This document shows, in pieces, positions 15,560-61,995 of a DNA stretch of 64,000 nt. Made by a program: the position numbers and the translations under genes. The stretch is from an uncultured Lentimicrobiaceae bacterium (lineage in GTDB: Bacteria; Bacteroidota; Bacteroidia; Bacteroidales; DASVHX01). The notes below the pieces were generated by a model. The model was not told the DNA's origin. It made no database searches and saw nothing but the letters and a program-made list of their open reading frames with translations. Position 1 is the first letter of the stretch, and every line of letters begins with the position of its first letter. The stretch is from assembly GCA_964511085.1 (NCBI GenBank), contig CAZEDO010000003.1, forward strand, positions 3,883 to 67,882, written 5' to 3'.

Positions 15560-18385
15560 TTATGGAGTTATTGCCCCGGCAGCCAAATTTGTATTGTTTT
15601 CAACGATCGCCATATCACTGCCGTCAATCACACCATCTCCATTGCAATCATCAGGCAGATAACCTGAAGCGGCATTATTTGTATCGTTTTCAATAACTGA
15701 CATGTCTCCGCCGTCAACAATCCCGTCCTGATTTACATCACCACAAATAATTGCATAACCATTATCAGCCATGAGCAAAAGGTTGCCAGCATAAATATCA
15801 TCAGGTGTGCCAAATGACTGGTAAATAAGAGAGCCTGCAAATGAAACAGCAGTCGAGCTCACCGTTTCGAGGTGGCTGTGATTTTTTATAGTAACGTAAT
15901 AGTTACCATTCAAAGAAGCATCAATTGTTAAAGATGCTGTTCCCGTTGTACTAAGTTCCACATCCGTGTAAGCTGGTGCAGCGAGCGTAGCATACGTGGT
16001 TGCATCATGCAACTCAACTGTAATATGATCGGCAACACCGGCTGGCCAGTGAGGTCCATTTTCGTCTAAAGCCTGATTCAAAGTTCCACTACCTGCATAC
16101 AGCCCCTGAAGAAATACAGAAGTAAGGTTCAGAGTTTTGGATGTTACTGAATACTGCGTCAGGCTAACATCATCAATATAGAATAAGCCTGTTGAATTAT
16201 CACCGGTGGTTGCAGTGGCCCTGAACCGGAAATAGATTTGAGGATTATTGTCATTTATTGGTAAAACAACCTGATGCCATTGTGTAATTGATGCATACAG
16301 AGGAATTGGATCTTGCTCAACCAGGGACCAGTTTGTATTATCATATGATTTCTCGATAAACAAATGGAGATTACTTGCCAGGTTTTTATCCAATACTTTA
16401 ACAAAAAATTCCAACGTTCCGGCACCATTATATGCAGGTGATGTAAGTGTACCTCCATCAGAGGGAGAAAGCCACTTAAACTTAGGTGTCAGATAAATAG
16501 TGGAACCATAGAATCCCATACCATTAGTAGATGAACTTCCTACATTGGTAGTATTTGACCATCCGGCAGGTGGCATAATATCAAATCCTTGTTTAAAAAT
16601 GTAAACATTTGTACCTGGCTCCTTGCTGAAAGTCACATGGTATGTAGAAGTTGTAATTCCATCCTGGGCTGTACAAATGATAGTAGCAGTTCTCTCTGCA
16701 ATTGAACCGGTTAAGTTTACTGGTTGCGTAACAACATATGTAGCAGGTGGACAACCTGATGCCGGGATAACAAAATCAGGTTCTGCATCCACAATTAGCG
16801 AATTGGTTTCAATGGGAACAACGATGGAATAATCGAAAGTAGCCAACTCAAACCCTTTAACCCGGATATTTTGTTTCAATGGGTCTAACCCATTTGGAAG
16901 CCATTTGATATAAGTGAGAGCTGAATTAGCACTTGGTAGTGCAAAAGTGAAATTAATAGTGTAAGTATGATTTGTTGAGCCGTCCTGGGCAGTAACAAGC
17001 ACGGTTGTTGAACCTGGCAATAATGCTGCAGGTGTAACAACGGCTGTTGCAAGAGGGAAGTTAGTGGTTGCTGTAACTACTGGAACTGTTGGCAATCCAT
17101 AAGGTACTACAAAAGAATAAATATATGTTGAAGGTAAGAACCCTGCAACAGTTGTACCATTCACTTTCAAATCACTTAAAGTAGCATCATTGCTTAAAGT
17201 AGCCGGAATAGTTGTAAAAGTTGAACTTTGCAACACAGATTCGTTTCCGGCGCCATCTTTTACCGGGCCAATAGCCAGATAGTATTGCTGTGCATTCAGC
17301 AAGCCGGCTCCCGGAGTAACAGTAATAATTGTTTTTGTTGCATCAATAGTTGCTGTGAAAGGAACAGGAGTACCAGAAGCATTGGTGGTTTTTAACGTTA
17401 CCAGTGAAGCCAGATCGCTATTTGTCAAATCTGATCCATCGGTTTTCCTTACAGGCTCGTTGAATGTGATAGTTGGGATTACAGAAAGCAGAACATTTAT
17501 TGATCCATTAGCCGGAACAAAAGCACCAACCGGAGCCACAATATCCTGTGTAACAGCATCAGCCCAGGTAAGGCCATCCCTTATGCCATCCACAGTCACC
17601 ACAGGTGAGTATGCTCCACCCTGCCGGAGTTGGACACATCGTTGTCCTATTCCATCAGATCCGACATCAGTGGCAGAAGCATTAGGCGCTGGTTCCGTTA
17701 CAGGAAAAGGATTTGCCGGATCAAAAACAAAAACGTCAACCACATCATTAAAAGTTCCGGTAATAAAAGTATATTTGAGAACAACAAGGTATGTTGTGTT
17801 AAGACTATAATATTGAGATGTCCATATGATTGGAGCTGTACTACTTCTGGCGCTCTTGGTAACTCCAAAATAAATCTGACCTGATAGTAATGAATCCTTA
17901 GCATATAACCTTCCTTTAAAAACTGTGAGTGAGGCACCGGTCGTTTCTTTAAAACTGAGGAAATAATCACCACCTTTGGTAGCAGAAGTAACATTTACCA
18001 ACGCGGAAATATATACACTGCCTGAAGAAATGGTACTGGCACCTGTAAAATTTCTGAAAAGATCCTGACCACCAGCGATATTACCGAATGTTGCGGCTAA
18101 TCCAATACCTGAGGCCTGGTATCCGGAATAAAATAATCCTGACGAATTTACCTGTATGGGATTAGTGTTATCAGTGCCTTGCAGAGTCCACAAAGTAGAA
18201 CCACCTTGCCCGACAAGGTTTCCAGATGGATAACTGAAGTTCTCATTGATCTGAATTATCTGTCCCCAGCCTTTGCCTGCAAATAGCAACAGCATTAATA
18301 TCATAATAGCAGGAAGAAACAGGAAGTTGAATTTAACCATAAAAAAGTTTTGTGGCTTTGTGGGAAATTGAGTATTATTTTCCAT
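15560..18385 (-). CDS. Giant secreted multidomain protein with a C-terminal beta-sandwich plus dockerin-like module
   Basis: 941 aa. Contains a signal peptide ending GKGWGQ, an N-terminal LamG-like domain shared with 23342..27460 and 51408..53570, and an SbsA/Big_5-like Ig domain. Also two cadherin-like beta-sandwich domains (DATLSDLKVNGTTVAGF) and a MAM/choice-of-anchor-J-like domain (LFYIDDVSL). The last 192 aa are a FLQGLY beta-sandwich plus DVNQDGIVDGGD / DCNGDGVIDGSD double EF-hand loops. Confidence 0.85.
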   Translation of the reverse strand: MENNTQFPTKPQNFFMVKFNFLFLPAIMILMLLLFAGKGWGQIIQINENFSYPSGNLVGQGGSTLWTLQGTDNTNPIQVNSSGLFYSGYQASGIGLAATFGNIAGGQDLFRNFTGASTISSGSVYISALVNVTSATKGGDYFLSFKETTGASLTVFKGRLYAKDSLLSGQIYFGVTKSARSSTAPIIWTSQYYSLNTTYLVVLKYTFITGTFNDVVDVFVFDPANPFPVTEPAPNASATDVGSDGIGQRCVQLRQGGAYSPVVTVDGIRDGLTWADAVTQDIVAPVGAFVPANGSINVLLSVIPTITFNEPVRKTDGSDLTNSDLASLVTLKTTNASGTPVPFTATIDATKTIITVTPGAGLLNAQQYYLAIGPVKDGAGNESVLQSSTFTTIPATLSNDATLSDLKVNGTTVAGFLPSTYIYSFVVPYGLPTVPVVTATTNFPLATAVVTPAALLPGSTTVLVTAQDGSTNHTYTINFTFALPSANSALTYIKWLPNGLDPLKQNIRVKGFELATFDYSIVVPIETNSLIVDAEPDFVIPASGCPPATYVVTQPVNLTGSIAERTATIICTAQDGITTSTYHVTFSKEPGTNVYIFKQGFDIMPPAGWSNTTNVGSSSTNGMGFYGSTIYLTPKFKWLSPSDGGTLTSPAYNGAGTLEFFVKVLDKNLASNLHLFIEKSYDNTNWSLVEQDPIPLYASITQWHQVVLPINDNNPQIYFRFRATATTGDNSTGLFYIDDVSLTQYSVTSKTLNLTSVFLQGLYAGSGTLNQALDENGPHWPAGVADHITVELHDATTYATLAAPAYTDVELSTTGTASLTIDASLNGNYYVTIKNHSHLETVSSTAVSFAGSLIYQSFGTPDDIYAGNLLLMADNGYAIICGDVNQDGIVDGGDMSVIENDTNNAASGYLPDDCNGDGVIDGSDMAIVENNTNLAAGAITP

Positions 18386-18435
18386 AGGATTACATTTTGG
18401 GCGTCAGCCATTAATTAATAAATATTTTTTCAGTG

Positions 18436-18503
18436 TAAATGTATAAACGCACCTACTCATTGGGGTTTCTGAATTGATCTATTCGGTTTCCAAATTGACC
18501 AAT
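18436..18503 (-). promoter_or_regulatory. Promoter/operator module A (GAAACC-N15-GAAACC-N20-TACATTTA)
   Basis: In gene orientation, GAAACC sits at 18464-18469 (proximal) and 18485-18490 (distal). The -7-like box is at 18436-18443 and the ATTGACCAAT palindrome at 18494-18503. Coordinates +/-2 nt. Confidence 0.65.
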
Positions 18504-18556
18504 CAACAAGAATATGCTTTGAAAGTGTTATAGTTTAAGAGCAGGTGTATTTTTAT

Positions 18557-18565
18557 GGGGGGGGG
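18557..18565. repeat. Homopolymeric G9 tract (intergenic)
   Basis: Run of 9 G between the stop of 18589..22029 and promoter module A. This is unusual in such an AT-rich sequence. Confidence 0.8.
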
Positions 18566-18588
18566 ATATAGCTGGTGCATTAGCAGCA

Positions 18589-21500
18589 TTATGGTAAAGC
18601 AACAGAAACAGCTGCTGCTGCATTATTTTCCACAATAGACATATCGCTGGAATCAACCAGGCCATCTCCATTGACATCTTCAGCTAAATAACCACTTGAA
18701 GCAATAGCGGATAAATTTTCAACAATTGACATATCACCTGAGTCAACTATTCCATCCTGGTTTGCATCGCCTCCAAATATTGCATATCCACCACTTCCCA
18801 TTTGAACTAGATTGCTGCCAAATGCTTTTATTGGATTATCAAAGCTATAAGTTATATTGCTACCAGAAAATGATATTATAGAAGAAGAAACTGTAGCTAT
18901 GCTGTTGCGATGCCTGATAGCCACATAATATAAACTATTGTATATACCTGGCAAAGTGAGTGTTGCAGATCCATCAGTATTCAAGTCAATATTATAAGCA
19001 GTGTAAATAATGTTATTGTACAAGGATCCGTCATGCAGTTCTATAGTGATCTGATCAGCAATGGCACCTGCGAATTGATCGCCTGAAACACCCTGTGCTT
19101 TTCTCATGTAGCCAGGGCTATAATACAATCCTTCAAGGAAAAGGTTTAGGTTGAATGTTTTGTTTGAAGTTAAGGTTTGAGCAGCTTCGTTTGAATAAGC
19201 TGAACTCCCGGAAGCATTATAAGCTACAACACGGTAAGTATACAGAATTGAAGCAGAGAGTCCGGTATTACTGTAGTTTGTTATGTTTGCGCTTACTGTT
19301 CCTATTTCAGTAAATGCTCCGGCGTCAGCTTTGCGCTCAATCCTGAATCCTGTTTCATTTGATGAGTTGTCAGCCCACATAAGATTAATCTGGCCTGGTG
19401 GTACTGCTGTAGCGGTAAGACTGGAGGGTGCTGCCGGAGGCAGTGTATATTCATTTGCACCAATATCGGCGGCAGCGGTATAAAGAGCATTTCCCCAATA
19501 ATCTCTGCCTCCATTATTTGAAATTGTTTTACCGGTGTTTATACATGATGATCCGGACTGGAGTTTGTATCCACTTACTGTATTAAGACCAAATCCACCG
19601 CTTCCGGGACTCACCAGCTTTGGATCGGTGGTCACTTTATGAGCATCAGATGGTTCCGTTGAAGGATGAATTCCGTAAAAACAATTGTAATCAATAGACC
19701 TTGTATATCCTGTAGTCCAATCGTAGCTGGCCGTGGGACTGAGATTATAAATCAGGTTGTTGTTGAATGTATATATCCTTGATCCGGCACCACCAACATT
19801 GCGTTCAGAAATGATTAAAGGTGAAAGATTTGATGGTATATAAACAGTGTTATTGTATATACGAACGGAAGTAACAGGATAATTGATGCAAAAAATTACC
19901 CCTTGGTCATTCTGACTAATGTTATATCGGCAAACCACATTCACATCTGCCTGAACGGTACAAGTCCAGAAAAGACCGTGGGCATTATCGTGGCTGTAAC
20001 TATACTGCCAGTATGTATTTGGCGAACGCAGGTCGGCATCATATAAACTGCCGTCAGCATCAGGCGAATTATTATCGTATCCTTCATTGTACTGAAAAAC
20101 AGTTCCTGAACAGGCTGCTGAAAATATTGTATTTCCTGTGATTCCGTTTGCTGTATTATAACATACATTGTTTTCAATAACTCCTCCTTCAAACAGACGG
20201 ATTATCATCGCATTTTTGGAAATATTGGAGATCGTATTATTGCGGATTACTGCATTGGTGATCTTCATTGAGTTCCATTCTGCAGAATAAGGATCAAATC
20301 CATCATCCGTTACACACTCAGTAATTATTCCCTGATTCTCGCACGAAGAAATCACACAATTTTCGATAAGGATATCATTAAAATGAGTTTCCTGTGAAGC
20401 AACTGAAACAATTGCAAAACCAATTCCACCTGTACGCTTGTCTGTACGTTCTTGACCAACAGAGCCTTTAATGTTATGAATATACAGATTCTTCAAATAA
20501 ATATGATTGGCAGTACCAAAATTCTCTGCTTCAATCCGCACACCTCTGCGATCGCCTGCAGCAGCAGCATTATTCGTAATTTCCAGGTTATTGACTTCCC
20601 AGTATTGCTGATTATAAAGGTAAACCACTCCTGTTCCGGTCATACCATTTCCATCGATTATTGGTTTATTTCCTTCACCATACATATCGATAATAATTGG
20701 GCTTCCTGAAATTCCAGAGCCTTTTGGATATAACTTTCCGGTCCAGACTCCTCCAGCCTTAAATAAAATCCTGTTATTAGCAGTAAAAGTTGTTGCATTT
20801 ACTTTAGTAAGTGTTTTCCATGCGGTAGCAGAAGACAAACCGTTGTTTGCATCATTCCCTCCGGTAAAATCAATAAAATATGTAATTATTTCTATACTTT
20901 GAGTTGTAGCTGAAGCTTCGTTTGAATAAGCAGAGTTACCTGTTACATTATAGGCTAAAACACGGAAAGTATATAGCGTAGATGGAACAAGTCCGGTGTT
21001 GCTATAGCTTATTATGTTTGGCCCAACGATAGCTATTTGCGCAAATGTACCAGTTCCTGTCTTTCTCTCAATAATGAAACCGGCTTCATTACTGGCATGA
21101 TCGGTCCAGAAAAGTTGAATTTCACTTGAAGAGATACTATTGGCAGTAAGATTGTCGGGCGAAATTGGTAATGTTGGGGCACCCAATGTTGTAGCGGAAG
21201 ATTCGTTTGAATATGCCGAGTTCCCGAAAGTATTGAAAGCAAATACACGGTATGTATATAAAGTAGATTCATTAAGCCCCGTATTACTATAACTATTAAC
21301 ATTCGCACCTACAGATGCAATTTCGGTATAAGTACCTGATCCTGTCTTACGCTCAATTTTATAGCCGTCTTCATTGTTGGCATTATCTGTCCATGTTAAA
21401 TCTATCTGGTTTGAAGCTATTGTATTTGCTGCCAAATTAGTTGGGGCGTCAGGAACAACTGGGTTTGAAACGATTACAAGTTCAGGCCGGTTGGCCACTG

Positions 21501-22029
21501 CTTCTTTACTGCTGAAAGTGATAGTTGGCGTGGTGACTGTAGCCGAATAAACAACAATGCTTATTATTTTATCGTTTCCGGAGAACTGGCTTTGAACGTA
21601 GGTAGTTATATCCCATTCATAATATCCAGGTGATGCTAACAATGGGGTAGTAGCAATTATTGTTCCTTCTGCAGGTGCGTTGCTCCATGTTAATCCAGTT
21701 TCCGTCCATCCATCAGCTACCTGATGAATGTTCATAGAAACAGCTGTAGAGGTTGTAGCATATAATCTTATTATAGCGCTGGAAACCACGGTTACACCTG
21801 ATGTTGTTAAATCAAATTTTAGATATGCCTTACGAAAATTAACCGACGTAGCTTTTTTTACTATCAAATCCACTGCAGTTCCATAGTTTGTTGTGGCATT
21901 CGCATCATAAATGTACGAATCGGCAGTTGGGTTATAAGTTGCCGCCAAAGCAACCTTTCCTGGAATTAGCAAGGCTATTATTATGAAAAAAGAAGAGAAA
22001 AATGTTGTTTTTGATATGAATCGTTTCAT
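18589..22029 (-). CDS. Giant secreted enzyme: DNRLRE-like domain, 2x FN3, right-handed parallel beta-helix, FN3, dockerin-like C-terminal module
   Basis: 1146 aa. N-terminal signal peptide, then a DNRLRE-like region (TADSYIYDANATTNYG..KAYLKFDL) and FN3 repeats (IDLTWTDNANNEDGYKIERK). The beta-helix core is homologous to 59570..61930 over about 480 aa. The last 190 aa are FLEGLY beta-sandwich plus DANQDGIVDSGD / DVNGDGLVDSSD loops. Confidence 0.85.
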   Translation of the reverse strand: MKRFISKTTFFSSFFIIIALLIPGKVALAATYNPTADSYIYDANATTNYGTAVDLIVKKATSVNFRKAYLKFDLTTSGVTVVSSAIIRLYATTSTAVSMNIHQVADGWTETGLTWSNAPAEGTIIATTPLLASPGYYEWDITTYVQSQFSGNDKIISIVVYSATVTTPTITFSSKEAVANRPELVIVSNPVVPDAPTNLAANTIASNQIDLTWTDNANNEDGYKIERKTGSGTYTEIASVGANVNSYSNTGLNESTLYTYRVFAFNTFGNSAYSNESSATTLGAPTLPISPDNLTANSISSSEIQLFWTDHASNEAGFIIERKTGTGTFAQIAIVGPNIISYSNTGLVPSTLYTFRVLAYNVTGNSAYSNEASATTQSIEIITYFIDFTGGNDANNGLSSATAWKTLTKVNATTFTANNRILFKAGGVWTGKLYPKGSGISGSPIIIDMYGEGNKPIIDGNGMTGTGVVYLYNQQYWEVNNLEITNNAAAAGDRRGVRIEAENFGTANHIYLKNLYIHNIKGSVGQERTDKRTGGIGFAIVSVASQETHFNDILIENCVISSCENQGIITECVTDDGFDPYSAEWNSMKITNAVIRNNTISNISKNAMIIRLFEGGVIENNVCYNTANGITGNTIFSAACSGTVFQYNEGYDNNSPDADGSLYDADLRSPNTYWQYSYSHDNAHGLFWTCTVQADVNVVCRYNISQNDQGVIFCINYPVTSVRIYNNTVYIPSNLSPLIISERNVGGAGSRIYTFNNNLIYNLSPTASYDWTTGYTRSIDYNCFYGIHPSTEPSDAHKVTTDPKLVSPGSGGFGLNTVSGYKLQSGSSCINTGKTISNNGGRDYWGNALYTAAADIGANEYTLPPAAPSSLTATAVPPGQINLMWADNSSNETGFRIERKADAGAFTEIGTVSANITNYSNTGLSASILYTYRVVAYNASGSSAYSNEAAQTLTSNKTFNLNLFLEGLYYSPGYMRKAQGVSGDQFAGAIADQITIELHDGSLYNNIIYTAYNIDLNTDGSATLTLPGIYNSLYYVAIRHRNSIATVSSSIISFSGSNITYSFDNPIKAFGSNLVQMGSGGYAIFGGDANQDGIVDSGDMSIVENLSAIASSGYLAEDVNGDGLVDSSDMSIVENNAAAAVSVALP

Positions 22030-22071
22030 TTAGTCGCTGTATAAAGTTAATTAAAAATTGACATTACCAAT

Positions 22072-23151
22072 TCAAAAATTTATCTGTCTATAGATATCTG
22101 AATTTAATTGAACATTAGATTTCAGAACCAAGTTGTGTATATAATCTAAATATAATTTGTCGAGAAACGACGCCCTGATAGTTCTTTTACAATCATTAAA
22201 ACTCCTGTAGCCTAATAATCTCTTCTCTTTTACCTGAAAGATATATAATGCATCAGGATACTCTTTTACAGGGCTCCGTTCATTTATGAGCATCTTATTC
22301 GCTGCTTCTTTTACCAGTGATTTAACTGCATTGTCTTCTTCCTGCGAATAAACAGAATCGTTGTAAATGATATCTTCAACAGTTAACAAAACTGCCTGAT
22401 TTTTTTTATATTTTTCTTTAATTTCGGCAATATAGGATTCGTTCGTAAAAATGCTATCTGCAATATCAGTAAGCATTAGGGCTACATCTTTTCTTAATTT
22501 ACTATCCTCTTCAAAGTTATTTTCAGGTTTGATTTTCATACCTATCAGGCGAATTTTCATGTAATAACCCCTGCGATAAAGGCGATTCTTATCAATCTCA
22601 TAAACTTGCTTTAGTTTTTCATCTGAAATGCTGAAAACTTTTTCGTCTAACACGTTTTTCAGTTGGTTTACCATGTTAGTGAAAAGATAATTGTAATATA
22701 CATCTTCGCTGTACTGAACCGGCCCGTAAATTACTTTATTCAACTTCCTGGCTTCAAGCCTTCTATTGTTTTCCTTTTGGAGTAACCTAAGAAATTCCAT
22801 GTAGCTGATATCCGATACTATACCCCATTTTTTTGCGCTGATTTGCTGAATTTTGATCTGTTCCAACGTATCAAGGGTTTCCTTTTTCAATATATCAGAT
22901 GGTGTTTTACCGTCATAGGCTTTGCTCCAAAATTCATTATTGTATTCGGAACCATAGTTGATCCGGAAATACCGGATTACTTGCGAACGCCTTTTTTCAG
23001 CGCATTTCATAAATTCTCTTACAATTATTGGCTCACCATTAACAAAGGCTACTACAGAAGTATCTGCAAGCATTGTCTGGGCTATGCATGGGTAACCAGA
23101 AACTATGACAAACATGATCAAAATACATATTCTTCTCAAACATAAATGCAT
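22072..23151 (-). CDS. Secreted SurA-N-terminal-like / PpiD-like chaperone candidate (no PPIase motif seen)
   Basis: Signal peptide MHLCLRRICILIMFVIVSGYPCIAQ (start moved to the internal ATG at 23151). The VAFVNGEPIIVREF segment resembles SurA/PpiD N-terminal chaperone domains. It sits between two dockerin-type giant genes. Confidence 0.45.
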   Translation of the reverse strand: MHLCLRRICILIMFVIVSGYPCIAQTMLADTSVVAFVNGEPIIVREFMKCAEKRRSQVIRYFRINYGSEYNNEFWSKAYDGKTPSDILKKETLDTLEQIKIQQISAKKWGIVSDISYMEFLRLLQKENNRRLEARKLNKVIYGPVQYSEDVYYNYLFTNMVNQLKNVLDEKVFSISDEKLKQVYEIDKNRLYRRGYYMKIRLIGMKIKPENNFEEDSKLRKDVALMLTDIADSIFTNESYIAEIKEKYKKNQAVLLTVEDIIYNDSVYSQEEDNAVKSLVKEAANKMLINERSPVKEYPDALYIFQVKEKRLLGYRSFNDCKRTIRASFLDKLYLDYIHNLVLKSNVQLNSDIYRQINF

Positions 23152-23341
23152 TTCAGATTTATTAAAGCTCAATAACAACACAAACATCCTTATAAGATTC
23201 TTTGATGAATTAACAAATGTAATTAAGAATGTGCATCATAAAGTTATTGATTAGTCAACTCAGGTATCTTGAACGATCATTTACCTTACTAATTATTTGA
23301 AAACTATTTGTCAAAGCAATAGAATTCCAGGTAATACTAAT

Positions 23342-26300
23342 TTATGGAGTGGAAGATGCAACAGCAGATGCAGCATTGTTTTCAACAATCGACATGTCAC
23401 CGCCATCTATAAGGCCGTCTCCATTAGCATCTTCAGCTAAATATCCATTTGAAGCAACAGCAGAAGAGTTCTCAACAGGTGCCATATCGCCGGAGTCAAC
23501 TATTCCATCCTGGTTTATGTCTCCTCCATATATAGCATATACACTACCATCCCTAAGGAGGAGGTTGCTGCCAAAGGCTTTTTCAGGTGAATCAAATGCA
23601 AATCCGATTACTCCATTAGCAAAGGAAACAGGAAAAGCACAAGTTGTTGTAATACTGTTTCGATGCTTTACAGTAATATAATAAGAACTTCCCAGGGTAG
23701 CGGGAACTACAATTGAAGCATTTCCAACTGTGCTAAGATCCACATTATTGAAAGAATACACCTTTGTAGCATAGTTTGCAGCGTTATGCAATTCAACTGA
23801 TATCTGATCGGCAATATCGCCTGGAAATTGATCACCCATATCACCCTGTGCTTTTAACATCGTGCTATTTCCATTGTAAAGTCCCTCCAGAAATAATGCT
23901 AAATTTAGAGTCCTGTTAGCGACAGCATCATTTGAATATTCAGAATTGCCAGCAACATTATAAGCGCAAACACGATATGTATAGGATTTTGGTTTGGCAT
24001 TAACTTTACTCCATTCCTGGGCAAAAAAAGATGCCAACCATGCCGAAATCTCCGTTTCGTGCCCAAGACAGCTATGAGTAGCACCAGGAATGATATGTAG
24101 TTCGTTTGTAACACCAACAGCATCAAGTGCATTGTGCAAATCAATACTATTCTGTGGAAGAATTGTTACATCTGCATCACCATGAACCAATATAGAAGGC
24201 ACATCTGTTGATTGAAGGTAATTAGCAGTTGAATAAGGAGGTGAAGGATAAACCCATCCCCTCATTTCAGGTTCAAGTCCTCCCCAAAGAGTAGCATTAG
24301 CAACAATTCCAGTCTTGTTCCAAAGAGTTGTCAGGTACTGATTTTCTGGCGGAGATATTGCTGTTGGGTCTGGACCATCGAACTGGCATACTGTTTGAGC
24401 GGTTCTGCCACCTGCTGAACCACCAGCTATAAAGATAAGGTTTGGATCAATATGATATGTTGCTGCGTTTGCTTTTATCCAGCTAATGGCTGCGTTTGCA
24501 TCCCTTGCTGCATCCTGAAGGGCTGGAAACTCGGAAGCCTGAGTGGGCATATCGGCTGCTAAACGCAGTCTGTAGTCGATGGACATGCAAACGTATCCGC
24601 GCTTTGCAAACCTTGTACTGTAATCCACAATATAACCCTGGGTCCTGTATGAATCTGTTCTGAATCCTCCACCATGAATCCAAATAATCACCGGACGGGC
24701 TTGCGTGGCATCACCAGTTGGTTGATATATATCCAGCAGGAGCTCAGTTGGAACTCCTTTGTAATTAATTACATCGGCAAATTTTACTCCCGAAGTAACT
24801 GTTATAGCAGCAAACCGGTCAGCCGGGATAAAAGCACCAGGGTCAAGTCCTGGCATTGAATTACCAGAAGTAGTCACATCTGCTCCAGTGGTAGCTACTT
24901 GAGTAAAAAGTCCGTTGTCAGGTTTGCGCTCTATCCGAAATCCTGCTTCAGTTGAATTATTATCCGACCAGCTAAGATTGATCTGAGTTGCTGAGGATGG
25001 AATAGCTGATAAACTATATGGAGCTCCCAGTGCCACTGAGAAATTCACCCTGTAAGTATTCGTGGATATTCCATCGGGTGCAGTTACAAGAACAGTTGTT
25101 GTGCCTGGCATACTTGTAGCATTTGAAACAAGTATAGTTGAAGCAGGTTGAGTTGCTGTTGCTGTAACTATTGGCACTGTTGAAGTTCCGGCAGGTAATA
25201 TCACATTATATGAGTAGGTGGTTGGGGAGAATCCTGATATTGTAGTACTACCGACTTTCAAGTCACTAAGTGAGGCATCTGCCGTAGAATTCATGGTAAG
25301 GCTGATATCATCTATGTAAAACAAACCTTGTGAAGTTGTACCTGTATTTGCTGTTCCACGTAAACTCAACATTATACCGGAACTGTTATCATTCACAGGA
25401 ATAATTACCTGGTGCCATATTGTAGTACTCCCATCCATTGGCATTGGATCGGTGCTGATGGTTGTCCAGCTTGAACCACCGTCAGTTGATTTCTCAACAT
25501 AAAGATGCAGTTGGTGCAAAGGATCGGCATCCAGTACCCTCACATAAAATTCCAAAATCCCGGCTGTATTGCATGAAGGAGAAATTAATGTTCCTCCATC
25601 GAGAGGTGCTGTCCATTTAAATTTTGGACATGATAATCCTGGTGAAAAGAGGCCAACTCCATTTGAAGCGGAATTGCTTATATTTCCAGTAAAAGACCAA
25701 CTTGCAGGTGGAAAAGCGGCAAATCCCTCCTTGAAATGATAAGCCATTCCTGAAGATATATTAAATACAACTGAATAAGTTTTAGTAGTAACTCCGTCCT
25801 GTGCTGTTACTACAACGGTTCCTGTTCTTTGGGCCAATGTTCCTATAAGGTTTGCAGGTGGTACAAATCCCAAAGTTGCACCGGGTTGGGCTGTAGTAGC
25901 TACCAACGTCAACGAAGATACTTCATCTGGCAGTTCTGTTGTATAATTTAATACAGAAGAAGAAAAGCCGGTGACCATAACACTTTGGCTTCCTCCTGAA
26001 GGCAACCACCTGAGGTTACTCAGATTGGCATCGTTTGAAGGAGCTGCCAATGTAAACGCAACGGTATAGGTTAATTGGGTTATTCCATCCTGTGCTGTAA
26101 CAAGCAAGCTTGTGGAACCTGGCAATGAAACAGCTGGAGTAATAGCAACATTAGCCAATCCGAACGTCGGAGTAGCTGTAACTGTTGGTACAATTGTCGT
26201 ACCAAAAGGTAGTTCAACTGAATAAGTATAAATCGCGGATGCAAAACCTGCAACGGTAGCTCCGTCTATTTTAAGATCATTCAAACTGGCATCAGTACTG

Positions 26301-27460
26301 ATGGTATTGGAAAGTGTTGTAAAAGTTGAAGATTGGGTTCCTGATAAATTCCCGGCTCCATCCTTTACCGGCCCTGTTGCAATGTAGTAGGATTGGGAGT
26401 AATCTAGTTCAGAGGAAGGAATCAGGGTTATAATTGTTTTAGAATCATTGATTGAAGCACTAAATGGTACATCTGTTCCAGCAGCATCCGTGGTTTTGAA
26501 AACAACAAGCGATGCCAGATCCGCATTTGTAAGAGGAGTTCCATCAGCTTTAATTACAGGCGCATCGAAAGTTATTGTTGGCATTACGTTCCTTAGTACA
26601 TCTATTGCTCCGTTTGCAGGCACGAACGTAGCAACTGGTGCCACATTATCAAATGCAACAGCATCTGTCCATGTAGTTGCAACTCTTAATCCATCAATCA
26701 TAGCTGATGGACCATTAGCCCTTTGAGTAAGCATTACGGAACGCATCCCGGCCGCGTCAGTAGTCGTAATGTCTGCATAGGAAATTGAAGGAGTTGGTTC
26801 AGGCATGCCAGGAACCGGATTAATGAAAAGGTCAACATTATCATTTGTTGTGCCAATGACAAATGTGTACTTATAAACTAACAAATAAGTTGTATTGAGC
26901 TGATAATTGAAGGCAGTCCAGCCTGATGTTGGTGAAGTTGGAGGAGTAGTTCCTTTTGCAATCCCGAATGAAATTCCACTTGCACCATCACTTTTAATAT
27001 AGACCCTGGCCCTCACTACACTAGCTGTTCCCGATGTACTTGCATCAATTTTATTTGCCAGAAAATACTCTCCTGCAACAGTAGCGCTGGTAATTTTAAC
27101 CATGCACGCAACATAAACACTACCGGTGGTCAAAGCAGATGGAACAAATTGTTTAAAAGGATCCATCCCATCAGCTGGCCCCACCAACTGGGCCGAATTT
27201 CCAATTCCTGAACTGGCATACCCGGTATAGAATAAACCTTCACTTGCAACATTTAAAGGCACTGTTCCAGTCCCCTGAAGTGTGTAGCCTGGCGTTGGTA
27301 CTGCTGTAAGTGAGACTCCTGCCGGATAAGCGAAATTATCAACCAAGAGTTGTGCAGAGCTAACCTCTGCAGATAGCATTATTACCAGAAGAGCAATTGT
27401 TCGAATAGAAAGCAGGATTGCCCCGGCCATGTCTTTCACTTTTGTATAAGAAGGTTTCAT
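23342..27460 (-). CDS. Giant secreted multidomain protein with a nested alpha/beta-hydrolase (esterase) and a dockerin-like C-terminal module
   Basis: 1372 aa with the same N-terminal LamG-like, Ig, cadherin-like and MAM-like domain order as 15560..18385. Has HGGG (aa 929-932), GGSAG (aa 1012-1016), HGDAD and GATHS esterase motifs. The last 190 aa carry DINQDGIVDSGD / DANGDGLIDGGD loops. Confidence 0.85.
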   Translation of the reverse strand: MKPSYTKVKDMAGAILLSIRTIALLVIMLSAEVSSAQLLVDNFAYPAGVSLTAVPTPGYTLQGTGTVPLNVASEGLFYTGYASSGIGNSAQLVGPADGMDPFKQFVPSALTTGSVYVACMVKITSATVAGEYFLANKIDASTSGTASVVRARVYIKSDGASGISFGIAKGTTPPTSPTSGWTAFNYQLNTTYLLVYKYTFVIGTTNDNVDLFINPVPGMPEPTPSISYADITTTDAAGMRSVMLTQRANGPSAMIDGLRVATTWTDAVAFDNVAPVATFVPANGAIDVLRNVMPTITFDAPVIKADGTPLTNADLASLVVFKTTDAAGTDVPFSASINDSKTIITLIPSSELDYSQSYYIATGPVKDGAGNLSGTQSSTFTTLSNTISTDASLNDLKIDGATVAGFASAIYTYSVELPFGTTIVPTVTATPTFGLANVAITPAVSLPGSTSLLVTAQDGITQLTYTVAFTLAAPSNDANLSNLRWLPSGGSQSVMVTGFSSSVLNYTTELPDEVSSLTLVATTAQPGATLGFVPPANLIGTLAQRTGTVVVTAQDGVTTKTYSVVFNISSGMAYHFKEGFAAFPPASWSFTGNISNSASNGVGLFSPGLSCPKFKWTAPLDGGTLISPSCNTAGILEFYVRVLDADPLHQLHLYVEKSTDGGSSWTTISTDPMPMDGSTTIWHQVIIPVNDNSSGIMLSLRGTANTGTTSQGLFYIDDISLTMNSTADASLSDLKVGSTTISGFSPTTYSYNVILPAGTSTVPIVTATATQPASTILVSNATSMPGTTTVLVTAPDGISTNTYRVNFSVALGAPYSLSAIPSSATQINLSWSDNNSTEAGFRIERKPDNGLFTQVATTGADVTTSGNSMPGLDPGAFIPADRFAAITVTSGVKFADVINYKGVPTELLLDIYQPTGDATQARPVIIWIHGGGFRTDSYRTQGYIVDYSTRFAKRGYVCMSIDYRLRLAADMPTQASEFPALQDAARDANAAISWIKANAATYHIDPNLIFIAGGSAGGRTAQTVCQFDGPDPTAISPPENQYLTTLWNKTGIVANATLWGGLEPEMRGWVYPSPPYSTANYLQSTDVPSILVHGDADVTILPQNSIDLHNALDAVGVTNELHIIPGATHSCLGHETEISAWLASFFAQEWSKVNAKPKSYTYRVCAYNVAGNSEYSNDAVANRTLNLALFLEGLYNGNSTMLKAQGDMGDQFPGDIADQISVELHNAANYATKVYSFNNVDLSTVGNASIVVPATLGSSYYITVKHRNSITTTCAFPVSFANGVIGFAFDSPEKAFGSNLLLRDGSVYAIYGGDINQDGIVDSGDMAPVENSSAVASNGYLAEDANGDGLIDGGDMSIVENNAASAVASSTP

Positions 27461-27716: not shown

Positions 27717-27950
27717 CTACTCAGTAATTGAAGCTACCCGGCGTGTGTGGTAAAACTTATACACTCCAAATAGCAAAGCCAATAACAAGAGCATGCTTAA
27801 ACCGCCTTCAATGGGAGCACCGCCGCCAATGGGTCCTCCGGTAACAGCTCCACCACCTGATTGAATTCCAGGACCTGGCTGCGCCTGTGCCATAATGCAT
27901 GCCAATACGAATAATGAACAGAGGGCTATAATTTTAGATGTCTTTTTCAT
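27717..27950 (-). CDS. Gly/Pro-rich miniprotein: signal peptide plus tripartite sorting-signal-like C-terminus
   Basis: 77 aa. Composed of MKKTSKIIALCSLFVLACIMAQAQ (signal peptide), a 25-aa G/P-rich linker and a GGGAPIEGGL motif. These are followed by the TM helix SMLLLLALLFGVY and the basic tail KFYHTRR. It starts 15 nt after the stop of 27966..31481. Paralog of 31710..31946. Confidence 0.7.
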   Translation of the reverse strand: MKKTSKIIALCSLFVLACIMAQAQPGPGIQSGGGAVTGGPIGGGAPIEGGLSMLLLLALLFGVYKFYHTRRVASITE

Positions 27951-27965
27951 GATTTTAAATATTTA

Positions 27966-30900
27966 TTAGTTTACGAATACTTTTCCTGTGGCAATACCCT
28001 TTATAGTAATCACTTTCACAAGCAGGCAGCCAGTGTAGTTCACCATATCCGTTTTTTCAATCTGGTTGCCGGTCATCCGGGTACTACTCAAAAGGCGGCC
28101 GGTGATATCATACACTTCGATTGTGCCTTGCAGGCCATTAGGGTTTCTCACATACAGTATATGCATATTGCTGTAAATACTAAACATACCGGTGTCTGTT
28201 TCGCCAATACCACTGGTATTTTTGAAATGAAGGTTAAAGCGGTGCTCGGTATCGGCGGGAGCTGCGCTGAAACTGTACACAGGATTCTGCCGGAGATCCT
28301 GAGTTGTACTGGTTTTTACGTCTTCAAGCAGAAGTGGGGTGGCAGTATTAAAATTCTCAATACCTGATACCGTAAGGGTGTAAGTAGTTTCAGCACCAGC
28401 TTTGAAACCCAGGGAAACATCTGAATTAGCCTCCATTGAAGGCAGCGAATTTACTGTAAGAATGTTATCGGCAATGATAGAATACAACTGAGGTGCTTCT
28501 GTTATTCCAAAAAGCTTATAGGCATCGTAATCGCTATCGAAGCCTACAGTTGAAGATTGATTGAACGCTACAACAGCCTTATCTTCATATCCATTCCCAG
28601 TCACTTTTAGGAACATCAGATTATCGGAGGTTTCAGCTTTTTTATAAAACGAACTGCTGTGTACGCGCGAAGCCTGAGGAACCAGGAGTTCTGCATTCGC
28701 TGCATTTGCTTTTACAAAGAAACCCTGCATGGCTGGTACTACATTGTCTGTTAATGTACCATATCCTGATGGAGTTGTGGGGCCACATACATATTGATTG
28801 CCATCCCAAACATAAACATATCCATCAAGATTTGTCTTTGTCCAGATGCCCAGATCAAGATCTACGGCCGAAGGGAAAGGATTGCCTATAAAATGCCAGC
28901 CAGGGCCGTAACCAGGCGCGCCGGTTGTGTAACTGAGACTTGAATATGTTTGATCGCCACTGTTAATTGTGCCTGTAAAATCAAGAATATGAGACCCTGA
29001 TGGGAATTTAACAGAATAACCCGTTTTTGGGTTTAATGTATTTACATCAACCAGGCGGTTCCATGCACCAGTGTTTTCGATATACTCATCAACATAAGCA
29101 CCATCAAAAAGTGGAGAAGCCATGAAACTATTGCTGGTTGGCAGGCAGAAAAGATGCCAGGTATTGGGACCTGCTGTAAAGTTACGCTCAACTGTAACAT
29201 CGCCGCTAACAGTGCCACCGGTGATCAAGGAAGCACCTGATGCAACCTTAAATGCACCTGATGTTATCGTGAGATTAAACAATGTTGCCTGGCTGCTGAG
29301 GGTAATCCCGGCTGTGTTGTTGATTATTAGTGAACCTAAAGCACCAAAATCCATAAACCCGGTTCCACTGATAGTTTGTGCTATGGAACCATTTAGGGTG
29401 AGGTTTGTTGTTTTAGTCGCTTTACCGAATGTAAGTATCGCCGGAGTATTAACAATAATATTTCCCTTAATTGTCATCGGCGCTGTGAAATCCCAGTTTA
29501 CTGTTCCACTTGTAACTGTATAATTATCACAAGTAAAAGGGCTACTCCCTTGATTATTCTGAGTTGTGAGTGGAGAATCGTTTTCAAAGTTAGCATAAGT
29601 CCTTCCACTATACGAAGGTCCACCTGATGCAGCTGTGAATTTGTATAAACTGCCGGTTTCAAATGTCAAAACTGAATTAGGTTGACCCGCACCAAAAGGA
29701 TTACTTCCTGCATCCTGTATATACGTTGAGCCCGATTGGAATTTTACCGAATTCAAACTTGTTGTTCCAAATACACTTCCGGTAAAACCTGTTGTAGCTT
29801 TGAAAATACTACCACTGGCAAAAACCAGGCTGTTTGCATCTGCCGATTTTACCACATGAGCTGCTCCGCTTACCGTCATCGAGCTACTAATTAGCCCATT
29901 TGTTCCTGCATTTAACGACAACGATAATGCAAAGGTACCGGATATATTCAATTCCGAACTACTTCCGCTCACAGTCAGATCATCTCCTGCGGTTCCGGCA
30001 ATAGTTATTATTGTAGCAGCTGGTGCCTGTAAAGTTATCTTTGAACCACCGGAAACCAGCAATTGGGCAATTGTTTGAGTTGTTACATTGGTAATAGTAT
30101 AAGTTCCGCCATTGTCGAAACGAAGAATGTCATTTATGGCAGGTGCTGAACGGGCTGGATTCCAGTTTCCTGCTACCTGCCAGTCATTGCTTGTAGATCC
30201 GGTCCATGCATAAGTAGCTGGTGGGCCAAGCACATAACCACTACAAGTCACATTTGCAGGGGTACTGGCTCCTCCGCCTGCATTTCCGACATTTTCTAAA
30301 TTATAATTTCCAGTTGGCAAGCCTAACTTCAGCCTGACGTATATTGTGGTTGAACTTAATGTTGCACCCGAATAAGGAACATTGACAAAACTGTAAAAAT
30401 CAGAATTATTAAGAGATACTTCATAATTTGTACTACCAGTTACCGTAACGGTGCTGCCATCCAGATTAACTCCGCTTATGGAATAAGGCTGCGAAGGTGA
30501 AGACAAGGAACCAAAAACGTAATTAAAATTACTCAGAGATGATGGAGTTACACTTATTGTTGGAGTTAATACCGGAGATACTACAACTGTAAAGTTATCA
30601 TACATTCCTTTATTACTTGAACCAGCGCCATTGCTGTGATTCCATAAAAATCCGCAACTTGTCATGGCAGTTGATGTATAATTGCTATTTAAAGTACTAG
30701 TGCCTACTTGTGTTAAAGTGCCTGTTGCCGGGTCGGTTGGATCAGTAGTGCTTCCATCATCTCTCACATAAAGTTCCCAGATATTAGATGAAGGCGTATA
30801 TAGAACCTTAATACTGGCATATCTTGTCATTGTACCCAGGTCAGGAGATGGACCAATGATTGTAGTTACATTGGAATTTAAAACCAAGCCATTTGCAAAC

Positions 30901-31481
30901 CTTACAAGTTTTAGAGCATTATTTGTAGTTCCTTTTACCAAAACTACTGCATATCCGTTAGTTGATGTATTTGTGGGATTTGCACTTGATATGGCAAGAA
31001 TAACAGCAGAACCATAATTTCCAGCATCAAAACCTGACAGAGCTGTACTCCTGTTTGTTTTCATATTAAACGTCCAGGTGACAGGACCAGGATTTGCATT
31101 AAGTGTAGTTGAAAACGGAGATGAAAATGTTGATAATGGTCCGGTAATATATGTTCTACCTGCAGCTGGAGTGGCACCAGGATACATCTGAACTACATAA
31201 TTTGCAGGGTCAACTGTAGCAGCATTAGTAATTGATATTCCTGCAGGACTGGCTGTACTGGCTGTTGTCCAGGTCATGGTTGGAGTTCCTCCATTAGTCA
31301 AAGGAGATACCCCAAGATCCCGGTTAAAGTTATCGGCAAACACAGTTGTTGGCTGGCTCCAACCTTTGATTGAAACCATTAAAACCACAAGCACAAAGAG
31401 TGCCGGGAATCGAAAGAGATTTTGTTTAGCCGCACTCAGGTTTCTCTTTGGCGCAGGCCTTGTTGTGTAAAGGTTTGTCAT
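27966..31481 (-). CDS. Giant T9SS cargo, adhesin-like (extended signal peptide, LamG-like N-domain, beta-helix-like repeat region, type-A T9SS CTD)
   Basis: 1171 aa. MTNLYTTRPA leader before the hydrophobic core. The C-terminus IEVYDITGRLL...LLVKVITIKGIATGKVFVN fits the T9SS type-A sorting domain. Paralog of 32054..36142. Confidence 0.85.
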   Translation of the reverse strand: MTNLYTTRPAPKRNLSAAKQNLFRFPALFVLVVLMVSIKGWSQPTTVFADNFNRDLGVSPLTNGGTPTMTWTTASTASPAGISITNAATVDPANYVVQMYPGATPAAGRTYITGPLSTFSSPFSTTLNANPGPVTWTFNMKTNRSTALSGFDAGNYGSAVILAISSANPTNTSTNGYAVVLVKGTTNNALKLVRFANGLVLNSNVTTIIGPSPDLGTMTRYASIKVLYTPSSNIWELYVRDDGSTTDPTDPATGTLTQVGTSTLNSNYTSTAMTSCGFLWNHSNGAGSSNKGMYDNFTVVVSPVLTPTISVTPSSLSNFNYVFGSLSSPSQPYSISGVNLDGSTVTVTGSTNYEVSLNNSDFYSFVNVPYSGATLSSTTIYVRLKLGLPTGNYNLENVGNAGGGASTPANVTCSGYVLGPPATYAWTGSTSNDWQVAGNWNPARSAPAINDILRFDNGGTYTITNVTTQTIAQLLVSGGSKITLQAPAATIITIAGTAGDDLTVSGSSSELNISGTFALSLSLNAGTNGLISSSMTVSGAAHVVKSADANSLVFASGSIFKATTGFTGSVFGTTSLNSVKFQSGSTYIQDAGSNPFGAGQPNSVLTFETGSLYKFTAASGGPSYSGRTYANFENDSPLTTQNNQGSSPFTCDNYTVTSGTVNWDFTAPMTIKGNIIVNTPAILTFGKATKTTNLTLNGSIAQTISGTGFMDFGALGSLIINNTAGITLSSQATLFNLTITSGAFKVASGASLITGGTVSGDVTVERNFTAGPNTWHLFCLPTSNSFMASPLFDGAYVDEYIENTGAWNRLVDVNTLNPKTGYSVKFPSGSHILDFTGTINSGDQTYSSLSYTTGAPGYGPGWHFIGNPFPSAVDLDLGIWTKTNLDGYVYVWDGNQYVCGPTTPSGYGTLTDNVVPAMQGFFVKANAANAELLVPQASRVHSSSFYKKAETSDNLMFLKVTGNGYEDKAVVAFNQSSTVGFDSDYDAYKLFGITEAPQLYSIIADNILTVNSLPSMEANSDVSLGFKAGAETTYTLTVSGIENFNTATPLLLEDVKTSTTQDLRQNPVYSFSAAPADTEHRFNLHFKNTSGIGETDTGMFSIYSNMHILYVRNPNGLQGTIEVYDITGRLLSSTRMTGNQIEKTDMVNYTGCLLVKVITIKGIATGKVFVN

Positions 31482-31709: not shown

Positions 31710-31946
31710 CTATACAATAGCTAAAGAAACTGTGCGCATTTGGTACAATTTTCTTAAGCCATAAGCTGCTCCCATTGCTACCATTATGACTAATCCACTA
31801 CCAATTGGAGCCCCACCGCCAACAGGGCCGTTACCGGCACCAGGAGTAGCACCACCGTTAGGATGAGGAGGAGACTGAGCAAGCATCAGTAAAGGCGCTG
31901 TAACTAAAAAAGCTGAGATAAGTAATATTCTGAAATTCCTTTTCAT
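31710..31946 (-). CDS. Gly/Pro-rich miniprotein, paralog of 27717..27950
   Basis: 78 aa. Composed of the signal peptide MKRNFRILLISAFLVTAPLLMLAQ, a G/P-rich linker and a GGGAPIGSGL motif. These are followed by the TM helix VIMVAMGAAYGL and the basic tail RKLYQMR. Confidence 0.7.
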   Translation of the reverse strand: MKRNFRILLISAFLVTAPLLMLAQSPPHPNGGATPGAGNGPVGGGAPIGSGLVIMVAMGAAYGLRKLYQMRTVSLAIV

Positions 31947-58105: not shown

Positions 58106-58132
58106 CGAATTTTTTTTTGAAAGTAGATATAA

Positions 58133-59545: not shown

Positions 59546-59569
59546 AATATTTTTTTTTGTTAGGTAGTG

Positions 59570-61930: not shown

Positions 61931-61995
61931 TTTATAAATTCGAAGTTTCGATTTAATATTATTGAAATTAACCATCACCTGTGCGGCATGAGCCA

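Follow-up and report, generated by a model that had tools for sequence, protein, structure and literature searches.

A shared C-terminal module on three large secreted proteins

The 64,000-nucleotide stretch analysed in this study (the window) comes from an uncultured Lentimicrobiaceae bacterium of the order Bacteroidales (assembly GCA_964511085.1, contig CAZEDO010000003.1, positions 3,883 to 67,882). Its minus strand encodes three large proteins that end in the same module, and this module and its probable role in enzyme docking are the subject of this report. A first-pass annotation, made from the sequence alone, had reported three open reading frames (ORFs), which were recovered at exactly the same coordinates, and had assigned to them a shared C-terminal module consisting of a beta-sandwich and a dockerin-like double EF-hand. 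The genes and the parts of their modules are as follows (HMM, hidden Markov model).

15560..18385, minus strand: gene of module-bearing protein 1, 941 amino acids (aa); signal-peptide-like N-terminus without lipoprotein Cys
15761..16141, minus strand: beta-sandwich (X-module-like) half of protein 1, from the alignment; family HMM 2.6e-66
15563..15760, minus strand: dockerin half of protein 1; PF00404, 23.4 bits; C-terminal end ...AITP
15704..15739 and 15614..15649, minus strand: calcium loops of protein 1, DVNQDGIVDGGD and DCNGDGVIDGSD, from the loop pattern
18589..22029, minus strand: gene of module-bearing protein 2, 1146 aa; signal peptide; putative glycoside hydrolase cargo
18790..19164, minus strand: beta-sandwich half of protein 2, from the alignment and the AlphaFold model of residues 956-1146
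18592..18789, minus strand: dockerin half of protein 2; PF00404, 28.5 bits; C-terminal end ...VALP
18733..18768 and 18643..18678, minus strand: calcium loops of protein 2, DANQDGIVDSGD and DVNGDGLVDSSD, from the loop pattern
23342..27460, minus strand: gene of module-bearing protein 3, 1372 aa; signal peptide; esterase cargo
23543..23917, minus strand: beta-sandwich half of protein 3, from the alignment
23345..23542, minus strand: dockerin half of protein 3; PF00404, 22.8 bits; C-terminal end ...SSTP
23486..23521 and 23396..23431, minus strand: calcium loops of protein 3, DINQDGIVDSGD and DANGDGLIDGGD, from the loop pattern

As judged from the translations, all three N-termini are signal-peptide-like and lack a lipoprotein cysteine. 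Upstream of the module, domain searches identified Big_5, cadherin-like and MAM-like domains in protein 1; CBM96/DNRLRE, two FN3 domains, a GH136-like beta-helix and a further FN3 in protein 2; and Big_5, cadherin-like domains, FN3 and a BD-FAE/alpha-beta hydrolase esterase in protein 3. A protein identical to protein 3 (P0072) is labelled by PGAP only as 'alpha/beta hydrolase fold domain-containing protein', and dockerin is not mentioned in the annotation of the window's 'Bacteroidales bacterium' metagenome-assembled genome (MAG; GCA_037134235.1, GCA_049317905.1). When the entire window was scanned in six frames with lineage-specific HMMs, exactly three modules and exactly five type IX secretion system (T9SS) C-terminal domains (CTDs) were found, the latter on the proteins encoded at 27966..31481, 32054..36142, 49490..51001, 51408..53570 and 59570..61996. 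This agrees with the earlier description of five other large secreted proteins with a T9SS CTD and three module proteins without one.

The C-terminal 191-193 residues of the three proteins align end to end, with a single gap of one residue, 46-57% pairwise identity and 69 invariant columns, and divide into a beta-sandwich of about 125 aa followed by a 66-aa dockerin. The shared module of the first-pass annotation is thus real, and all of its motifs were found: (K/R)T(F/L)NL..FL(E/Q)GLY, ELH, YY.T.K/RHRNS, both loops and the terminal proline. Both 12-residue loops fit the pattern D-x-N-x-D-G-x-x-D-x-x-D and are intact in each protein; their starts, previously placed about 30 residues apart, are separated by exactly 30 residues in all three. 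Conservation statistics were taken from an alignment of 115 distinct modules. The ten calcium-ligand positions (loop positions 1, 3, 5, 9 and 12) are at least 95% conserved, five of them being invariant, and the consensuses of the two repeats are near-identical (DVNQDGxVDTGDMTPVDND and DVNGDGxVDTGDMTIVDNN), a likeness also seen in dual-binding type I dockerins. Near-invariant polar residues were also seen in the sandwich: E11, D37, E42, H44, H85, R86, N87, S88, T91 and N118.

The terminal proline is present in 113 of the 113 aligned modules that have a residue at that column and in 126 of 148 cluster representatives, and an aromatic residue (Y/F/W) sits two positions ahead of the G-D that opens loop 1. 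Intramolecular clasps of dockerins have been described for Trp(-1)/Pro75 of R. flavefaciens ScaA, for Met(-1)/Pro64 of a C. thermocellum type I dockerin and, in a type II dockerin, for Trp(-2)/Tyr60 (PMC3821032). The terminal proline and the aromatic at -2 fit this published clasp between the N- and C-terminal ends of a dockerin, with a contact that is predicted from sequence. The proline matches the known clasp and need not be a sorting signal.

Pfam Dockerin_1 (PF00404) matched the last 50 or so residues of each protein with the scores listed above; relative to the gathering threshold of 22.9 bits, proteins 1 and 2 lie above and protein 3 falls 0.1 bit short. Searched against solved structures, a profile of 41 family members matched only dockerins (among them 5lxv_B at 8.8e-5, 3ul4_B, 4fl4_A and 1daq; E 9e-5 to 1e-2), and these matches were confined to the C-terminal third of the module. 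A canonical EF-hand protein was considered and rejected, the EF-hand matches of the family profile being weak (E>0.1). For the sandwich half of about 125 aa, Pfam and NCBIfam gave no match even at E<=10, only noise. A dockerin-like stretch was also noticed in PDB entry 8X39 ('serine protease'), for which no paper was found.

AlphaFold2, run from the family alignment on the module of protein 2 (residues 956-1146), predicted one compact unit with a mean predicted local distance difference test score (pLDDT) of 97.4 and a predicted template-modelling score (pTM) of 0.92. In the model the beta-sandwich is followed by helices at module residues 142-153 and 172-183, one after each loop. The top ten Foldseek matches in the PDB were all X-module-type II dockerin (XDoc) chains from clostridial cohesin complexes; XDoc matches included 4wi0_B, 4u3s_B, 2b59_B, 5m0y_B, 5k39_B, 5g5d_B, 3kcp_A and 4fl4 (E 1e-6 to 1e-4, template-modelling (TM) score 0.52-0.66, identity 11-14%, about 190 aligned columns). 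After them came transthyretin-like or carboxypeptidase-regulatory-like sandwiches. The best reading of the predicted structure is an X-module-dockerin dyad with XDoc as its closest architectural analogue. Both the dockerin-like character and the union of sandwich and dockerin in one module, as first proposed, are supported by these searches. The module would work like XDoc but is not assigned to the XDoc family, its sandwich having no detectable X-module homology.

The family is very large and unannotated: PGAP names its members 'hypothetical' or by their catalytic domain. An exhaustive profile search of 1.84 billion representatives, which stand for clusters at 50% identity, returned 16,420 proteins at E<=1e-3 and 3,618 at E<=1e-30, hence at least 3,600 clusters. 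The match reaches the last residue of the protein in almost all of the best 150 representatives, and in the loci fetched for comparison the module is terminal in 128 of 130 module ORFs; tandem module genes are common there. Internal copies (P0167, L063 and P0134) are rare. Scanning one genome per GTDB species with a trimmed eight-sequence alignment confirmed 398 module copies. The best 80 of these all lie in MAGs labelled Bacteroidales, Lentimicrobiaceae or 'Bacteroidetes', and even these 80 alone amount to at least six to eight copies in each genome. Several MAGs carrying the module system were obtained from digester, wastewater and biofilm samples. Cargo domains on 49 complete members include C25 gingipain-like peptidases (eight proteins), M14, S8 and M28 peptidases and a PETase-like hydrolase, together with GEVED, PKD, CUB, BACON and MAM domains. 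As a whole, the cargo is of the secreted-hydrolase type.

Chance similarity, or a recently duplicated tail without function, would be compatible with the low-complexity Ala/Ser stretch at the very end of the proteins and with nothing more. The identity among the copies over 190 aa, the thousands of family members with invariant calcium ligands and the confident predicted fold all speak against it. We consider the idea refuted by copy identity, family size and ligand conservation, and its probability practically nil.

Relation to type IX sorting domains

The first-pass annotation had proposed that the module is not a T9SS CTD but an alternative address, and this distinction held in every comparison. 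Proteins 1-3 gave no match to TIGR04183, PF18962, TIGR04131 or NF033708 at E<=1. A lineage-specific CTD HMM scored the five CTD proteins of the window at 50-71 bits and did not match the module proteins. Alignment of the sandwich with the CTD family by hhalign gave a probability of 2.8%, compared with 99.7% in a control in which two halves of the CTD alignment were matched to each other. A CTD variant by homology was therefore rejected, neither the curated nor the lineage HMMs nor hhalign giving support.

A different possibility is that the module itself acts as a secretion or sorting signal of a new class, placed at the C-terminus and read by the T9SS or another outer-membrane system, with cohesin binding secondary or restricted to a subset of members. 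Its position at the extreme C-terminus and its near-invariant last residue would suit such a signal, and so would its per-genome copy number, which resembles that of CTDs. Module and CTD are mutually exclusive on the same kinds of cargo, including the C25 gingipain-like peptidases that are classic T9SS substrates; the organism-labelled genomic matches examined all come from T9SS-bearing Bacteroidota, and the sandwich carries a conserved polar patch. On the other hand, no relationship to T9SS CTDs could be detected, the element at the C-terminus is a canonical dockerin whose clasp accounts for the terminal proline, and cohesins co-occur and cluster with module genes, as described below. The rare internal copies also argue against a sorting role, as does P0102, in which five tandem copies precede a real CTD, so that the module is not always the terminal address. 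Overall we regard a new sorting signal as unlikely.

P0102 (1313 aa) was itself of interest. Its five tandem units, each made of a divergent sandwich and a dockerin-like part, have partly degenerate calcium loops. Its architecture shows that the unit can also occupy an internal position and be carried by a T9SS substrate.

Cohesins in relatives and the proposed docking mechanism

Clustering of neighbouring genes at 76 module loci revealed no partner at first; the recurring neighbours were T9SS adhesin-like proteins, histidine kinases, TPR proteins, Sortilin/BNR proteins and tail-fibre-like proteins. In P0167, one of the proteins with an internal module, a Pfam Cohesin match was found directly ahead of the module, and an iterative local search started from this segment uncovered tandem domains of about 135 aa in many module-bearing proteins. 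Bit scores for Pfam Cohesin (PF00963) were 84.8 in L038 (four domains), 88.9 in P0092, 90.3 in L030, 67.4 in P0145 and 55.3 in L056. Along its entire length, the lineage cohesin profile aligned with type I cohesins (2vn5_A at 1.3e-12, 6kg8_A, 4uyp_A and 1anu_A), and AlphaFold models of two cohesin proteins matched solved cohesins with TM scores of 0.7-0.78, the match to the cohesin dyad of 3l8q reaching E 1e-12. The first-pass annotation had suggested, as an example, a cohesin-like partner, and relatives with the same module do encode PF00963 cohesins, many of them on T9SS type A CTD proteins.

Two cohesin (Coh) architectures occur in the relatives: one to several cohesins followed by the module (Coh(n)-module), and the Coh-Coh-stalk-T9SS CTD type. 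Families of the cohesin-CTD kind comprise Coh-Coh-stalk-CTD proteins of about 816 aa, Coh-Coh-PKD-CTD proteins of about 600-680 aa and a Coh-CBM48/CBM20-CTD protein. Local HMMs found Coh-Coh followed by a T9SS CTD on at least 25 cluster representatives, and precomputed annotations gave PF00963 and PF18962 together on about 17. The genes are clustered in the order Coh-PKD-CTD, Coh-Coh-stalk-CTD, small ORF, Coh-module in L086 and L088, with similar cohesin gene groups in L056, L052 and L085. The modules of the window and those of cohesin-bearing MAGs have a median identity of 48-50%, and paralogues within a genome 47-52%. Since this similarity is as high as that of within-genome paralogues, the window modules belong to the same family and are not a cohesin-less offshoot.

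One gene of L052 (6595-8667) encodes a cohesin, CBM48/CBM20 starch-binding modules and a T9SS CTD, and adjoins a Coh-module gene. The encoded protein resembles an anchoring scaffoldin of the 'amylosome' style, here in a Bacteroidales MAG.

Based on these comparisons, we propose that the module docks enzymes onto cohesin scaffoldins that are anchored through the T9SS, and that this is the docking mechanism of proteins 1-3; we put the probability of this reading at roughly 70%. The enzymes would leave the cytoplasm by the Sec pathway, as suggested by their N-terminal signal peptides. Calcium would then fold the dockerin, an expectation from the dockerin family with which sequence and model agree; the type-I-like dockerin, with its two F-hand loop-helix repeats, is predicted to pack on its own sandwich and to be held shut by the clasp with the terminal proline. 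In this form it would plug into the cohesins of a scaffoldin, whose architecture is seen in the relatives. It is well established for Porphyromonas and Flavobacterium that type A CTD proteins are secreted by the T9SS and attached to the cell surface. By analogy with such studied cargo, the Coh-Coh-stalk-CTD and Coh-Coh-PKD-CTD scaffoldins would be secreted and become covalently attached to the cell's outer surface, and proteins with one to four cohesins and a module could act as adaptors that multiply the docking sites. Hydrolases would thereby be displayed on a Gram-negative cell in the manner of a cellulosome, with the GH136-like beta-helix protein and the BD-FAE esterase of the window as probable cargo and, in the relatives, many gingipain-type C25 peptidases. 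On this reading, this genome would encode a cohesin and the scaffoldins would be anchored at the surface.

Several observations weigh against the docking proposal. No cohesin was found in the 64-kb window by the six-frame scan with the lineage HMM (best E 0.66), as the first-pass annotation had also stated, and the relatives' cohesin genes that were looked up by accession prefix and on six contigs all lie in assemblies other than GCA_037134235.1, GCA_049317905.1 and ERZ4201038. The CTD matches on some cohesin proteins score 19.5-22.3 bits against a curated cutoff of 23 bits; the CTDs on cohesin proteins are backed by orthologues and by a held-out lineage HMM (3e-13). When the natural Coh-Coh-module protein P0227 was modelled with AlphaFold, the cohesins were well predicted, and the module had a pLDDT of 40-75, with a pTM of 0.51 and no confident arrangement. 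At two helix-flanking sites of the module, positions 155 and 185, proteins 1-3 have alanine in place of the phenylalanine of most family members. Judged from the alignment, the conserved polar residues of the sandwich exceed the needs of a passive stabiliser. To our knowledge, there is no known route across the Bacteroidota outer membrane for a protein that lacks a CTD.

The polar residues, and the fact that no cohesin was traced to this genome, would also suit a module that is a calcium-stabilised anchor for a non-protein ligand, such as a surface glycan, lipopolysaccharide or a substrate polysaccharide, held by the sandwich patch with no need for a cohesin in this genome. The secondary fold matches to transthyretin-like and carboxypeptidase-regulatory-like sandwiches point the same way, and other bacteria are known that have dockerin proteins but no cohesins (PMC9763041, citing Ruminococcus albus 8). 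However, the sandwich matches no Pfam carbohydrate-binding family, several relatives with the same module have cohesins, and the surface residues of the dockerin are symmetrically conserved, as protein docking predicts. An anchor of this kind is quite unlikely.

With regard to export, a further reading is that the module enzymes carry no signal of their own for crossing the outer membrane and would hitch-hike on other cargo, or else that the dyad would be an unrecognised class of T9SS cargo signal. Hitch-hiking would require that the dockerin binds, in the periplasm, the cohesin of a scaffoldin with a T9SS CTD and that the folded complex passes the T9SS translocon. Either solution is doubtful at present; if true, it would constitute a new mode of cargo recruitment for type IX secretion and would define a Gram-negative 'cellulosome' based on the T9SS, with proteases and glycoside hydrolases as its load.

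Among known systems, the XDoc dyads of Clostridium thermocellum CipA and Acetivibrio cellulolyticus ScaA (PDB 2B59, 4WI0, 3KCP), which gave the best structural matches, likewise have a beta-sandwich directly N-terminal to a two-repeat calcium dockerin, packed as a rigid unit and placed C-terminally, as here. The Coh-Coh-module proteins parallel the Coh9-X-Doc fragment of CipA, in which the dyad follows tandem cohesins. In contrast to these dyads, with which identity is 11-14%, the sandwich studied here shows no detectable homology to known X modules; at about 125 aa it is larger, and it is far more conserved. The dockerin scores as type I, the lineage cohesins are nearest to type I and not to types II or III, the dyad occurs on ordinary enzymes and not on scaffoldins only, and the host is a diderm of the Bacteroidales. 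With the type I dockerins of clostridial cellulosomal enzymes (PF00404; 1OHZ, 2VN5), the module shares the duplicated 12-residue calcium loop and helix, loop positions 10-11 occupied by small residues, a strong two-fold internal symmetry, the C-terminal position on hydrolases and a terminal clasp, here predicted from sequence. It differs from them in an inter-repeat linker about six residues shorter, in its obligatory fusion to a conserved sandwich and in scoring only at the Pfam threshold.

In the Cloacimonadota, a cellulosome-like system has been predicted for the genus Candidatus Stygibacter (PMC8542988), and its inferred scaffoldin combines cohesins with a T9SS-type CTD. Candidatus Stygibacter is likewise a diderm of the FCB group, with C-terminal dockerins on signal-peptide hydrolases that include C25 gingipain-like proteins, and the CTD of its scaffoldin would serve surface attachment, like those of the anchors in our relatives. 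It belongs to another phylum, however, and has one giant scaffoldin, not families of small proteins with Coh-Coh-CTD and Coh(n)-module architectures as in our relatives; a conserved sandwich-dockerin dyad was not described there, and both systems are inferred from genomes only. T9SS CTDs (type A, TIGR04183/PF18962) are also extreme C-terminal, sandwich-containing addresses of large proteins secreted by Bacteroidota; they too occur many times per genome and on the same sorts of cargo. Unlike them, the module is twice the size, ends in a dockerin and not in the last strand of a CTD, and shows no sequence or profile similarity.

Dockerin-like modules of Bacteroidetes are on record: of the dockerins from a bovine rumen metagenome, 8.8% were assigned to Prevotella or Bacteroides (PMC6487960). 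We found no paper linking Lentimicrobiaceae to dockerins; no such system was evident in the parts consulted of the literature that names Lentimicrobiaceae alongside cellulosomes, and among the titles and abstracts seen in a general search none described this combination of dyad, cohesins and T9SS. What is new here is a conserved sandwich-dockerin dyad together with type-I-like cohesins in a diderm lineage whose scaffoldins have T9SS sorting domains.

Cohesin-dockerin assembly is textbook knowledge for Gram-positive cellulosome producers, and the accepted strategies of Bacteroidota are polysaccharide utilisation loci (PULs) and T9SS-secreted multidomain enzymes. The dyad and the T9SS-tailed scaffoldins found in one lineage suggest a third strategy, modular enzyme display at the outer membrane, with peptidases (C25, M14, S8, M28), esterases and glycoside hydrolases as cargo. 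The data offer concrete candidate plug-socket pairs and raise the sharp question of how proteins without a CTD leave the periplasm. The dyad and its cohesins could also serve as orthogonal surface-display parts in Gram-negative hosts.

Neighbouring genes and further observations

Two giant paralogous genes lie directly upstream of the module genes and are given as context only.

27966..31481, minus strand: T9SS type A CTD protein with stalk and CTD, no cohesin
32054..36142, minus strand: paralogous T9SS CTD protein with the same stalk and CTD, no cohesin

The last 470 or so residues of both giants, which form the stalk and CTD, are homologous to the cohesin-bearing anchor of L056 (2270-4723; 27% identity, E 3e-39 and 2e-23). 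Their heads are ConA-like, Ig-like or FN3 where the L056 anchor has cohesins. Small ORFs of 73-85 aa (27717..27950 and 31710..31946, both on the minus strand) were found 9-110 nucleotides downstream of the stalk and type A CTD genes. They consist of a signal peptide, a Pro/Gly-rich stretch, a motif resembling 'GPVGGxAPIGxGL', one transmembrane helix and a basic tail, with a faint PID_CTERM match in precomputed Pfam annotations. The same small ORF was seen in L086 (12457-12693), L088 (6261-6503), L056 (4759-5016) and L055 (3329-3550 and 9645-9881). A CTD protein is encoded directly upstream in seven of the nine good small-ORF matches, and three of these CTD proteins have cohesin heads. The stalk-CTD gene and the small ORF are a conserved two-gene unit, and the window order of stalk-CTD gene, small ORF and module gene mirrors the scaffoldin clusters of the relatives.

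A family of about 495 aa, in which '...ENIITSGTTLRV...' precedes the module, was observed in L006, L009, L011, L013, L014, L015, L026, L028 and L034. Its ORFs (about 477-504 aa) end near locus position 6573, and the copy in L034 lies at 1246-2745. Their neighbours are tail-fibre-like proteins that start with 'AVNTDGTSPDNSAMLDVKST...' and, at some of the loci, a Sortilin/BNR protein; the N-terminal 300 aa could be assigned to no family.

In protein 2 (18589..22029, minus strand), the beta-helix region shows a distant likeness to the GH136 lacto-N-biosidase LnbX (82.7 bits, far under the equivalog cutoff). The adjoining 371-aa gene (22072..23187, minus strand) resembles LnbY, the dedicated chaperone of LnbX (58.8 bits). 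This sequence likeness suggests that protein 2 and its neighbour may form a GH136-like enzyme-chaperone pair.

Further downstream, positions 53981..63630 (minus strand) have a PUL-like context made up of the following genes.

53981..58105, minus strand: hybrid two-component regulator
58133..59545, minus strand: 470-aa protein without family
59570..61996, minus strand: CBM96 and beta-helix protein with a T9SS CTD
61996..63630, minus strand: SusD-like protein

The dockerin genes are therefore interspersed with both PUL-type and T9SS-type strategies at this locus.

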